64,000 bases of DNA from an uncultured Lentisphaerota bacterium (GTDB taxonomy: Bacteria; Verrucomicrobiota; Kiritimatiellia; CAIQIC01): positions 876-64,875 of the forward strand of contig CAISWQ010000079.1 in the NCBI GenBank assembly GCA_903889245.1, read 5' to 3'. Position numbers and translations under genes: made by a program. A model generated the notes under the pieces. It did not search any database, had not been told where the DNA came from, and saw nothing but the letters and a program-made list of their open reading frames with translations. Below, in pieces: positions 23,322 to 25,546 of this stretch; position 1 is the first letter of the stretch, and the number at the start of each line of letters is the position of its first letter.

Positions 23322-23699
23322 ATGCGTACCATGATGATATTGATGCAGGGCGTCGGGCTGGCGCTGGTGCTGTGCTCGTGTGTGGCCTCCACCGCGACGA
23401 AGAAGGAGCCGCTTTGTGGCGGGTTCTCCGAGGCCAAGTGCGATGACCAGTGGGTGGTCGCGGCGGCGGAGTTCGCGGTCAAGGCGCAGGCCCAGGCGAT
23501 GAGTACGGCGGCGAAGCCGGTGGCCCTCACGCTGGTCAAGATCACGCAGGCCCAGCAGCAGGTCGTCGCCGGCATGAACTATGACCTCACCCTGCAGGTG
23601 AAGGTGGCAGGCGCGGCGAAGGAAGCCAAGGCCCGCGTCTGGCGCAAGCTCGATGGCACCCACGAACTGACCTCGTGGACGTGGGCGGAAGCGAAGTGA
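23322..23699 (+). CDS. Small lipoprotein with cystatin-like QxVxG motif
   Basis: ATG 23322 with upstream GAAGGGAG. MRTMMILMQGVGLALVLCSC (lipobox); QQVVAG motif. The ORF track starts earlier inside repeat DNA. Confidence 0.5.
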   Translation: MRTMMILMQGVGLALVLCSCVASTATKKEPLCGGFSEAKCDDQWVVAAAEFAVKAQAQAMSTAAKPVALTLVKITQAQQQVVAGMNYDLTLQVKVAGAAKEAKARVWRKLDGTHELTSWTWAEAK

Positions 23700-23719
23700 G
23701 GATGATAGCCGCGCTCGTG

Positions 23720-23860
23720 AGGGCGCGGCAGAAAACCGCAGCAGGTTGAACCAGGAATTTTGAATGTCGCAGGTCGGAGAACGTTTTCGTAGGCGCGCTC
23801 GTCAGAGCGCGGCCCACCTCCGCGGGTACAGCCGCCGATACCTAGAACTACTAGGTATCG
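23720..23860 (-). repeat. Composite repeat element, copy 3, inverted orientation
   Basis: gaaaaccgcagcaggttgaaccaggaattttgaATGtcgcaggtcggagaacgttttcgtaggcgcgctcgtcagagc...gatacctagaactactaggtatc. Confidence 0.8.
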
Positions 23861-23904
23861 GCGCTCGTAGCCCTGCGACTGGGGGCGGTGCGCTGCTGCG
23901 GTCG

Positions 23905-24588
23905 GTGGTTGTACCGGGTTTGGTTTTGTTGCTGATTTCCTGCAGCGGGCGGCCGGTGGTGCCGGCCACGCTGGGCGAGGCGCACCGCGAACTGGAACGG
24001 ATGTTGCCCAAAGAGGAACTGGCCCGGATTGACGCGATGAAATCCGAGAAGGACATGATTGATTATCATTCAGGTCTCGGCATGGGACTGCGGAACGATT
24101 GGGGGCTTTGGCGCAGTTCACCGCTAGCCCAACACATGCGACAACTGGGTTTTTCCCATCCGGATGATATGTCAGCGACCATTTTGGAAACATTCTGGTG
24201 CCTGCGGCATGGTCAGCCCTTCCGGCTTCAGGAACGCGCCGGCCATTACGCCGCTTATTGGAAAGCCCAGGCCGAACACAGCACCGGCCCCATTCGGGGT
24301 TCCATCAACGTTCAGGCCACTGTGGGCAAGTACAGCCCGCACGCTTTGCACGAAGACTATACCGACGGGCGCTGGGCCACGTTTGACGCGGTGGCCTTCA
24401 CGATCCTTTCGCCGCCGGAGTGGCAGGGGACAAACCTCGTGGTCTACTGCTCGCCCGGCAAAACCAATCCGCTGTTTCAAAAGACCGGCGCCAAGTGTTC
24501 GTTCACCATCCAGCGCGAATACCTTGCCGACGCCTCAAATCGCCAACCGTTCGACGGCGCGCTGGAGAATCTGAAGGAAATTAAATAG
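23905..24588 (+). CDS. Hypothetical lipoprotein
   Basis: The track ORF 23764..24588 begins inside a repeat element. A plausible in-frame GTG at 23905 gives VVPGLVLLLISCSG (lipobox). The start is uncertain. GC is lower than the flanks. Confidence 0.4.
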   Translation: MVVPGLVLLLISCSGRPVVPATLGEAHRELERMLPKEELARIDAMKSEKDMIDYHSGLGMGLRNDWGLWRSSPLAQHMRQLGFSHPDDMSATILETFWCLRHGQPFRLQERAGHYAAYWKAQAEHSTGPIRGSINVQATVGKYSPHALHEDYTDGRWATFDAVAFTILSPPEWQGTNLVVYCSPGKTNPLFQKTGAKCSFTIQREYLADASNRQPFDGALENLKEIK

Positions 24589-24668
24589 GCGTTTGAACCC
24601 TATGCCACCGAACCTGTCCAACGCCGCAAGCATGCCATCGCCGGACCCGGATTGGGTCGGAGGCGCAC

Positions 24669-24782
24669 GTTTCCAAGGATTGGAAACGGCAGCGGGTGCT
24701 TTTTCCAAACATTGGAAATTCTCACAGAAAATTTTCCAAGCCTTGGAAAAATCAGCCAATCTTTTTCCGAGCCTTGGGAAAC
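24669..24782. repeat. Palindrome cluster g: 4 copies
   Basis: gtttccaaggattggaaac / tttttccaaacattggaaatt / attttccaagccttggaaaaa / tttttccgagccttgggaaac. Confidence 0.85.
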
Positions 24783-24828
24783 CCGGGTTTTTGAATGAGG
24801 AAAGCAGGAAGGCAGGAAAGGAGAGATC

Positions 24829-25227
24829 ATGTTAAGCCAGCAGGACCTGACGGGGAAAATCATCGGGGCGGCGATTGCCGTCCACAGGGAAGTGGGGCCG
24901 GGTTTTTTGGAGAATATCTACGAGAATGCGCTGTGTGTGGAATTTGATGCGCAAGGCATCCCGTATGAGCGGCAGAAGGTGATCAACATCTTCTACCGCG
25001 ACAAGAACGTCGGCGAGCATCGGCTGGATGTGCTGGTCGCCGGCTCGGTGGTTGTAGAGTTGAAGGCCATCCGCGCGCTGGAGGACATCCATTTCGCCAT
25101 CGTGCGCTCCTATTTGAAGGCGCTGAATTTGGAATGTGGTTTGATCCTGAATTTTGCCGCCATGCCACTGACGATCAAGCGGGTGGGTAGGGAGTTTGCA
25201 CAGGATCAACAGAAGGAAGCAGAATGA
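24829..25227 (+). CDS. GxxExxY family protein (PD-(D/E)xK-like; family often found in rRNA intervening sequences)
   Basis: AGGAAAGGAGAG Shine-Dalgarno then ATG 24829. MLSQQDLTGKIIGAAIAVHREVGPGFLENIYENAL... matches the GxxExxY signature. GC is about 55% against a roughly 67% background. Confidence 0.75.
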   Translation: MLSQQDLTGKIIGAAIAVHREVGPGFLENIYENALCVEFDAQGIPYERQKVINIFYRDKNVGEHRLDVLVAGSVVVELKAIRALEDIHFAIVRSYLKALNLECGLILNFAAMPLTIKRVGREFAQDQQKEAE

Positions 25228-25458
25228 ATTTGGAAGACAGGAAAACAGGAACGGAACCGGAGGCGCAGCCCTCCTTTCCTGCTTTCAGGAGTTCCAAATT
25301 CCAAAAAATTCCACGAGAATGATAAAGCGAGTGCGTGTCATTCGATACAAACCTGATCAAAAGACGAAAGAAAAATGAATTTGGAAAGCAGGAAGGCAGG
25401 AACGGAACCGGAAGGCGCAGCCCTCCTTTCCTGCTTTCATGAGTTCCAAATTCCAAAC
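25222..25458. repeat. Two about 85-bp direct repeats (25222-25305 and 25374-25458), each with an internal hairpin GAAAGCAGGAAGG...CCTCCTTTCCTGCTTTC. A partial third copy at 24795-24826 sits just upstream of the GxxExxY gene.
   Basis: gaatgaatttggaagacaggaaaacaggaacggaaccggaggcgcagccctcctttcctgctttcaggagttccaaattccaaa versus gaatgaatttggaaagcaggaaggcaggaacggaaccggaaggcgcagccctcctttcctgctttcatgagttccaaattccaaa. Low-GC DNA (about 45%). Confidence 0.8.
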
Positions 25459-25546
25459 AACTTTTTTACAAACGTTTTTCAGATGGATGACAGCGGTTGG
25501 GGCGCAAAGCGGTCAAATGCAGGCGTGAACTGAAAGCGAGGACGAC

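Follow-up and report, generated by a model that had tools for sequence, protein, structure and literature searches.

How do three small genes come to lie inside a gene module that is operon-like elsewhere in its class? The question is raised by a 2.8-kb interval in a stretch of 64 kb from an uncultured Lentisphaerota bacterium (contig CAISWQ010000079.1). We call this whole stretch the window; its GC content is 65.9%, and all our composition and repeat counts refer to it. On the 5' side of the interval stand a gene for a sigma factor of the extracytoplasmic function (ECF) type (18064-18612) and then a gene for an anti-sigma factor with zf-HC2, VWA and YfbK_C domains, which ends at 22742. On the 3' side is a giant gene (25547-32098) for a protein of 2183 amino acids (aa) without a Pfam domain. 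The three open reading frames (ORFs) in between share the orientation of these flanking genes. The initial annotation saw them as a low-GC, cassette-like mini-island of small secreted proteins, each gene bracketed by repeats. The ORFs (23322-23699, 23905-24588, 24829-25227) and the repeats it listed are all where it placed them, and in folding predictions the hairpins are far more stable than shuffled controls. Our interpretation is a different one. The interval is probably a flexible islet, sitting at a permissive junction within a conserved ECF sigma/anti-sigma/giant membrane-protein module, where unrelated small genes have been gained and lost within a genus. The features on which the argument turns are these:

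22743..25546, + strand: variable interval, from the end of the anti-sigma/VWA gene (22742) to the start of the 2183-aa gene (25547); 2.8 kb, three ORFs
23322..23699, + strand: cystatin-family lipoprotein gene, 125 aa; Pfam Cystatin and SQAPI; native composition
23905..24588, + strand: DUF6794 lipoprotein gene, 227 aa from the GTG at 23905; Pfam DUF6794, 94.5 bits; lipobox LISC
24829..25227, + strand: GxxExxY / PDDEXK_3 gene, 132 aa; Pfam and NCBIfam
25461..25546, + strand: leader or promoter-like block CTTTTTTACAAACGTTTT…TGAC… of the 2183-aa gene; right edge of the variable interval

Gene turnover at one junction

The window's closest relatives are metagenome genomes of the Kiritimatiellia, and we ordered them by the identity of their giant protein to that of the window. 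In six relatives at 43-53% identity the interval is free of genes and only 22-282 nt long. The giant gene begins 22-80 nt after the anti-sigma gene in L005, L006 and L008 (43%), 25 nt after it in L012 (51%) and, with no gene in the gap, 282 nt after it in L034 (53%). Within the genus, at 80-93% identity, the picture is quite another, and the cargo differs lineage by lineage:

L013: the same three genes as the window
P0001: a repeat-derived-looking 100-aa ORF and a cystatin (125 aa)
P0003/L010: GxxExxY, a 55-aa ORF and a 169-aa signal-peptide protein
P0004: four ORFs without Pfam domains and GxxExxY
L014: a 201-aa lipoprotein and GxxExxY
P0006: a single 533-aa HEAT protein

The giant proteins of P0006 and P0003 are 93% identical, yet the cargo beside them is different. 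In a neighbour-joining tree of the giant protein the window and L013 are sister to the remaining members of the genus; the cystatin is present on both sides of that split, GxxExxY likewise, and the two are found apart from each other in relatives. The simplest history is one of an old cystatin and an old GxxExxY gene, followed by losses and additions. Even between the window and L013, which carry the same genes, the flanks are 94% and 91% identical, while the cystatin, DUF6794 and GxxExxY regions stand at 76%, 79% and 84%. The anti-sigma/giant-gene junction is thus a hotspot of gene turnover confined to one genus, and its three passengers in the window are mutually independent. Accessory DNA, as the initial annotation called it, is what the presence/absence comparison with relatives reveals, the block not being at the same place in all of them. 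What does not survive is the idea of acquisition as one block, for the compositions of the genes differ and they occur independently in relatives.

The right edge of the interval is marked by the leader block. A block of the form CTTTTACAAACGTTTTGCGG…TGAC stands before the giant gene both in the window and in L010, L011, L013 and L014; in L010, L011 and L014 we recognised it by eye, directly 3' of whatever cargo the lineage carries. The window and L013 align at 90.6% identity from 25355 on, across this block. We infer that it acts as the promoter of the giant gene, although a scan for sigma-70 promoters returned no site.

Some observations on the setting belong here. The triad of ECF sigma factor, zf-HC2/VWA/YfbK_C anti-sigma factor and a Pfam-less, multi-pass membrane protein of about 2150 aa is kept across metagenome-assembled genomes of Kiritimatiellia and Lentisphaerae (240 homologues at E<1e-50). 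It lies at 18064-22742 and 25547-32098 in the window and is also found in L005, L006, L008, L012 and L034. The genes that surround the triad differ in every genus-level relative. In L034, the 282-nt spacer holds a different long hairpin repeat (5790-5915; …GTCATCCCGAGACCTTCGAC…/…CGCTCGGAATGACA), which suggests that every lineage fills the spacer between the anti-sigma and giant genes with a repeat family of its own. A scaffold in ENA, BUCK21-1…scaffold_41, contains an identical stretch.

Composition of the three passengers

The base composition bears out a low-GC island only in part. The region 23322-25460 has 57.6% GC, and the fall from the window's level begins only near 24000. By gene, the values are 65.9% for the cystatin, 58.6% for DUF6794 and 54.9% for GxxExxY. 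GC at third codon positions (GC3) is 0.89, 0.70 and 0.73, against 0.79-0.94 in neighbouring genes, so that DUF6794 and GxxExxY have the two lowest GC3 values in the window. In order, the spacers of the interval have a GC content of 63.9%, 51.7% and 47.0%. Values between 45% and 67% are found for other spacers of the window, and AT-rich spacers are therefore not peculiar to the interval. The composition of the cystatin gene is native; the shift toward AT, which the initial annotation had spread over the whole segment, is limited to DUF6794, GxxExxY and the two right-hand spacers.

A predicted nuclease gene framed by inverted repeats

Of the three passengers, the GxxExxY gene has the most to say. 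Its product scores 131.5 bits against TIGR04256 (cut-off 35) and 127.3 bits against PF13366, PDDEXK_3 (cut-off 22). Over 15 homologues the PD-(D/E)XK residues E28, E77 and K79 never vary, and D67 is kept in at least 90%. It has no signal peptide and is predicted to be a cytoplasmic-type PD-(D/E)XK nuclease, not an inhibitor. A single-sequence AlphaFold prediction gave an unusable model, with a predicted local distance difference test score (pLDDT) of 35, and relatives in the PDB were found neither by sequence nor by profile. The family is large, with 15,769 representatives at 50% identity; a search of the literature on GxxExxY, PDDEXK_3 and TIGR04256 turned up no functional study. A viral origin of the family was rejected, there being 2 matches in 2.9 million viral contigs. 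Some members of 250-295 aa consist of two tandem domains (e.g. P0234, P0236, P0240 and P0255).

In the window the gene is set in a frame of repeats:

24788..24823, + strand: left arm (…GAATGAGGAAAGCAGGAAGGCAGGAAAGGAG), 5 nt away from the start codon; the likely ribosome-binding site is within the arm
25223..25305, + strand: hairpin 1, in which a second copy of the left arm, starting from the stop codon, pairs with the right arm; -31 kcal/mol, z -3.6
25271..25306: right arm of the GxxExxY inverted repeat, 3' of the gene
25355..25457, + strand: D4 repeat (copied last ~24 nt of GxxExxY) with hairpin 2; 84% identical; -36.4 kcal/mol, z -4.8

The left arm and 25271-25306 form an inverted repeat with 28 matches over 36 positions (z 8.0 relative to shuffled sequence). 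The hairpin repeats at 25223-25305 and 25374-25457 are 92.9% identical to each other, and L013 has one copy where the window has two. These two 85-bp hairpins, listed by the initial annotation as direct repeats, are extra copies of the arms of the GxxExxY module.

Is such a frame a quirk of this one genome? Nineteen GxxExxY relatives were fetched from metagenomes, giving 15 usable, non-redundant loci in unrelated genomes, and each was scored by the best inverted repeat between its upstream and downstream flanks, against shuffles. A significant frame is present at 14 of the 15 loci, with z from 4.8 to 19. The arms abut the ORF, and each is made of two or three short tandem sub-repeats. Their sequences are of seven kinds: CAGGAAAG-type, GGAACTCAGGAAC, CACTGAAG-type, CACAGAT-type, GCAATCAAAT-type, GCGGATT-type and AAAGGCGCTAAGG. 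In the window the CAGGAA-type arm motif occurs beside GxxExxY only, and the same is true of every fetched locus that has the motif. The gene and its arms form one unit.

One type of arm is found in quite different surroundings. CAGGAA-type arms are common to GxxExxY proteins 64-87% identical to the window's, whether in the anti-sigma/giant interval of Kiritimatiellia or between the stop of nuoEF and the start of nuoG in L018-L021 (nuoEF being identified by NuoF motifs and nuoG by its N-terminal Cys motif). The inserts at L018 2466-2932, L019 278-741 and L020 697-1154 are placed precisely between the stop codon of nuoEF and the start codon of nuoG, and the stop codon of the upstream gene falls within the left arm. 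When these three orthologous inserts are compared, identity is 90-97% in the arms, 71-75% in the ORF and 67-79% in the nuo flanks, which implies strong constraint on the arm sequence there. On reading the outer arm ends in L018-L020 we saw no target-site duplications. In the islet, the right arm of the module stops about 6 nt before the point from which L014 and L011 become alignable.

The GC content of GxxExxY is below that of its own locus in 14 of 14 cases; low GC is thus a trait of the family and not evidence of recent transfer here. As a side observation, many calls of single-domain members are longer by 15-50 residues at the N-terminus; the probable cause is an ORF that was read through the left arm, as in the 'MNQESRKAGK…' of L018 and L020.

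Two lipoproteins, one of them of the cystatin family

The initial annotation had named the first protein, of 125 residues, cystatin-like and had noted its QQVVAG (QxVxG) motif; the name was well chosen. The protein scores 36.5 bits against Pfam Cystatin (PF00031, cut-off 22.2) and 43.5 bits against SQAPI (PF16845, cut-off 31), and its best matches in the PDB are phytocystatins (E 3e-8 to 4e-4). Judged by its sequence, it is a genuine member of the cystatin family. Among 28 bacterial homologues there is little or no variation in the N-terminal GG, the FAV helix motif, QxVxG (QQVVAGMNY) or LTSW. G33/G34, Q80-V82-G84 and W119 do not vary at all, and the Pro of the PW motif is replaced by Ser or Thr. 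All 28 have a hydrophobic N-terminal leader. The protein is probably exported and, because the inhibitory motifs are conserved, probably inhibits papain-like (C1) cysteine peptidases. One homologue, P0123, is 72% identical to the window's protein and is presumably the islet copy of P0001. We found no biochemical work on this bacterial cystatin clade in the literature.

The DUF6794 protein belongs to a rare family, of which we found 39 homologues with an HPDDMS motif that is invariant or nearly so. Its C-terminal domain is common to three homologues only, in one of which the domain order is swapped. In the predicted structure an N-terminal six-helix domain exceeds pLDDT 90 and the C-terminal half is unconfident (mean pLDDT 67); a Foldseek search of the model against the PDB gave no match at E ≤ 0.001. 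The sole alternative start, used by public gene calls, is an ATG at 23764 that would make the protein 274 aa long. It lies inside a repeat, element A (described below), whose internal ATG-ORF is non-coding, and this favours the GTG at 23905.

Small secreted proteins, possibly protease inhibitors, was how the initial annotation summed up the three products. Two of them have signal peptides and GxxExxY has none; and there is one candidate protease inhibitor among the three, the cystatin. Only GxxExxY receives a name from NCBIfam. PADLOC and PHROGs gave nothing significant for any of the three, DUF6794 having a marginal match (E 0.0019) to a PHROG without assigned function.

The remaining repeats

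Each gene of the interval is, literally, bracketed by repeats. Most of the repeat families, though, occur elsewhere in the window as well. The copies relevant here, and their counterparts, are as follows ('P units' denotes TTCCAAnnnTTGGAA palindromes):

22789..22855, no strand: GC-rich module B (…ACGACGCCGTTGGTAGYCCCGCCGCAAGGCGGGC); copies 91-96% identical at 17755-17789, 17908-17934 and 17955-17990
22858..22991, + strand: element A copy 1, a composite of about 135 nt with two small hairpins
23021..23095, no strand: hairpin H, perfect 27-bp stem and 21-nt loop; -65.5 kcal/mol, z -10.2
23215..23261, no strand: pair of P units, 32-nt period; L013 has four units here
23725..23864, + strand: second copy of element A, with one more hairpin on its 5' side (23706-23729); whole span 23706..23864, -61.8 kcal/mol, z -3.4
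24671..24779, no strand: array of four P units, 31-32 nt period; the spacer 24589-24776 is wholly missing from L013
17532-17686, - strand: element A copy 3, of the direct-repeat family of copies 1 and 2
L013 622-755 and 1475-1709: element A in L013
P-unit sites in the window: 5490, 7533-7608, 11022-11067, 13287-13332, 17038-17146, 23215-23261, 24671-24779, 32102-32146, 33021-33067, 40894-41003, 44555-44600 and 50054-50162
P-unit sites in relatives: L010 16735, L011 6999 and L012 16349-16394

With up to two mismatches allowed, there are 34 occurrences of TTCCAAnnnTTGGAA in the window, where chance would give 0.78. Thirty-two of the 34 lie in 12 intergenic sites, in arrays of one to four with a period of 30-33 nt; three of the sites are in convergent spacers, one in a divergent spacer and eight in tandem ones. 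The AT-rich consensus, TTTTCCAAGSCTTGGAAAA, defines a family that is kept in relatives at 80% and 51% identity, with arrays that vary between near relatives. In L012 the palindromes are at the same place as in the window, just past the stop codon of the giant gene. Searches of the literature for the palindrome sequence, and for repetitive extragenic palindromic (REP) elements in Kiritimatiellae, brought up nothing relevant.

Element A is known from the window's species and L013 only, in five copies, and has no Rfam match. It consists of a conserved core, AACCGCAGAAT.GTGAACAAGGAATTTTGAATGTCG.AGG, followed by two hairpins, and it is always 5' of a gene and in the same orientation: the cystatin gene, the DUF6794 gene or a two-component system operon. 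It could be a portable promoter or leader. We rejected it as a coding leader on reading the alignment of copies 1 and 2, which differ by seven non-synonymous changes and no synonymous ones; two of these changes compensate each other in a hairpin. Hairpin H, about 75 nt long, has copies at 17226-17302 and 63301-63371 and in L011 (1-30), a relative at 80%, and looks like a miniature inverted-repeat transposable element (MITE). Rfam, at gathering and at permissive thresholds, gave only sub-threshold, miRNA-like matches to the hairpins, and no rRNA in the window.

Between a response-regulator operon and the sigma gene, the divergent spacer of 1.2 kb (16862-18063) is a mosaic of B, B, A, partial A, H and four palindromes, in the module order seen upstream of the cystatin gene (A, H, palindrome array). 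Most repeats, then, have further copies at other places in the window, and the arrays of palindromes are unstable. Apart from the GxxExxY arms, the repeats of the interval are REP-like intergenic fillers and not the ends of cassettes. Elsewhere in the window, a 3797-aa ORF (50311-61704) stands out by a first-position GC of 0.54, against 0.6-0.78 in other genes.

Weighing the explanations

How might such an islet have come about? The islet of the window holds three independent passengers: a native cystatin lipoprotein gene, an AT-shifted DUF6794 lipoprotein gene and an AT-shifted GxxExxY nuclease gene with iteron-like inverted repeats. The last of these, with its arms, may be a selfish module on the plan of the ORF-bearing intervening sequences (IVSs) of 23S rRNA. 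Its early insertion, along with a promoter of the giant gene's own, would have loosened a tight operon coupling and left a spacer tolerant of repeat proliferation, in which REP-like repeats would expand and contract fast. For the later exchange of small genes, either homologous recombination through the conserved flanks or recombination at the repeats may be responsible. The predicted nuclease would bind or recognise its own arms, and the cystatin would act outside the cytoplasm as an inhibitor of C1 peptidases.

Several points weigh against this account. Neither for the cystatin gene nor for the DUF6794 gene did we find a recombination junction, a target-site duplication or an empty site that was clean. 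P0001, P0004 and P0006 are known from their ORFs and not from DNA, so that their repeats and junctions are unseen. All the relatives are metagenome contigs, in which assembly errors at repeats are possible; countering this worry, an identical GxxExxY protein is found on 11 contigs, and the four of these that were displayed, standing for seven similar ones, keep the window's downstream gene order. As to the selfish module, arm conservation among the Kiritimatiellia copies is only about equal to that of the gene, and in the lowest-energy RNA fold of the window copy a local 3' hairpin wins over long-range pairing of left and right arms. Finally, much of the cargo consists of secreted proteins within an envelope-stress module, and a functional link to that module is possible.

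That last point leads to the strongest of the rivals, which we nevertheless consider unlikely: that the islet is a functional extension of the ECF sigma/anti-sigma/giant module, its lipoproteins being co-regulated envelope factors whose position is selected, with the cystatin, for example, keeping cysteine peptidases away from the anti-sigma factor or from the giant protein. The three flanking genes are indeed operon-like, 22-80 nt apart in distant relatives; the interval genes are all co-oriented with the module, terminator-like sites are not above chance (4 against 4.3 expected), and the cargo of several relatives is secreted or lipoprotein. Yet cargo is swapped wholesale between close relatives such as P0003 and P0006 (93%), most of the class has none, and GxxExxY lacks a signal peptide. 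The conserved promoter-like block before the giant gene, moreover, suggests that this gene is uncoupled from those upstream. Transfer of the three genes together, as a single island from a donor of lower GC, we regard as improbable. The low overall GC of the segment, the GC3 values of DUF6794 and GxxExxY and the lack of the block in distant relatives are what such an origin would leave behind. But the cystatin, with its GC3 of 0.89, is native; P0001's islet has it without the other two genes, GxxExxY has other partners in P0003, P0004 and L014, each of the two lies on both sides of the genus tree, and sub-host GC in 14 of 14 loci is a habit of the GxxExxY family.

Least credible by some way is an integron-like or other site-specific cassette array, with the small genes as cassettes and the repeats as recombination sites. 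The alternation of repeat and gene, the direct repeats of element A that flank the cystatin gene 867 nt apart and the fast turnover of gene content all speak for the idea, and the initial annotation had called the arrangement cassette-like. However, the repeats fall into at least four unrelated families, most of which are also found at places without small genes: element A and the long hairpin recur away from the interval, as do the P arrays, which occupy 12 intergenic sites in the 64 kb. Element A is not an imperfect palindrome overall, its sole GTTRRRY-like site (GTTGAAC) is not conserved among the five copies, and relatives carry cargo without it. Reading the repeats between the genes, we found in none of them the attC layout (R''-L''…L'-R', GTTRRRY core, ~60-140 nt). 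Nor does any gene within ±10 kb, or any of the ORFs scanned across the window, encode an integrase, transposase or recombinase domain, and the window has no tRNA gene.

The flexible islet is therefore the reading we carry forward. A bolder proposal concerns the GxxExxY genes at large, and we hold it only tentatively, as a possibility that may well prove wrong. These genes would be the coding core of widespread, undescribed minimal selfish modules, each a nuclease gene of ~125 aa of the PD-(D/E)XK type with lineage-specific, iteron-like inverted repeats that are recognised by the nuclease or by RNase III. Such modules would insert cleanly between the genes of essential operons, in the manner of ORF-bearing rRNA IVSs, and leave solo hairpins behind as MITE-like derivatives, which would explain the 85-bp hairpins of the window. 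In this genus, one of them would have opened the sigma/anti-sigma/giant operon and so created the hotspot.

Significance and comparison with known systems

The islet itself is ordinary, one more flexible gene slot with a bacterial cystatin candidate in it. The lead worth following is the GxxExxY frame: arms that are exclusive to GxxExxY, and better conserved than the gene in one orthologous set, make for a testable hypothesis on the nature of the family. There is also a practical warning for those who annotate metagenome genomes of the PVC group. Arrays of TTCCAAnnnTTGGAA and element A give rise to spurious ORFs and wrong starts, among them the 274-aa DUF6794 call, 'genes' of 100-145 aa over repeats and the N-terminal extensions of GxxExxY.

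Flexible genomic islets are familiar from pangenome studies as small, hypervariable gene slots between conserved core genes. The interval shares with them its conserved flanks, a content that differs among close relatives, small and often secreted or selfish cargo, and cargo DNA that diverges more than the flanks. It differs in lying inside a triad that is operon-like elsewhere in the class, in measuring only 2.8 kb and in having no tRNA gene, integrase or direct-repeat borders. A classical genomic island it does not resemble: tRNA gene and integrase are missing, and the only direct repeats, those of element A, also occur elsewhere. With integron cassettes it has in common small, promoter-less-looking genes separated by structured repeats, but these lack attC architecture, come without IntI and belong to several families found elsewhere in the window too. 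The P units, for their part, recall the REP elements and bacterial interspersed mosaic elements of enterobacteria and pseudomonads in being short, imperfect, extragenic palindromes, numerous, in regularly spaced clusters and variable among close relatives. Their core, TTTTCCAAGSCTTGGAAAA, is AT-rich in a 66% GC genome, however, their 31-32 nt period is strict, and no transposase of the RAYT type was seen in the window.

The cystatin compares most closely with the phytocystatins of family I25, such as oryzacystatin and multicystatin. It matches the same two Pfam families, Cystatin and SQAPI, and has the N-terminal GG, the QxVxG loop, the C-terminal Trp and an AEFAV helix that corresponds to the LARFAV-like helix motif of phytocystatins. 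Unlike them, it is a bacterial lipoprotein with a signal peptide, and its second loop has SW in place of PW.

For the GxxExxY module, the closest parallel in construction is the ORF-bearing IVS. That of the Coxiella burnetii 23S rRNA is 428-444 nt long and contains one small ORF between 28-bp terminal inverted repeats (PMC4990558). Its GC content is below that of the genome, and it is excised by RNase III (PMC4990558, where the IVS of Leptospira is also cited). Three things set the GxxExxY module apart: its ORF encodes a PD-(D/E)XK nuclease and not the four-helix-bundle S23p, it sits between protein-coding genes and not in a 23S rRNA helix, and its arms are made of two or three short tandem sub-repeats. 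On location and ORF family, then, it is no IVS, and the likeness is one of architecture only. As architecture, the likeness covers a length of ~0.45-0.5 kb, one small ORF, terminal inverted repeats of ~28-36 nt, GC below the host's, tolerance within an essential transcription unit and vertical inheritance after acquisition.

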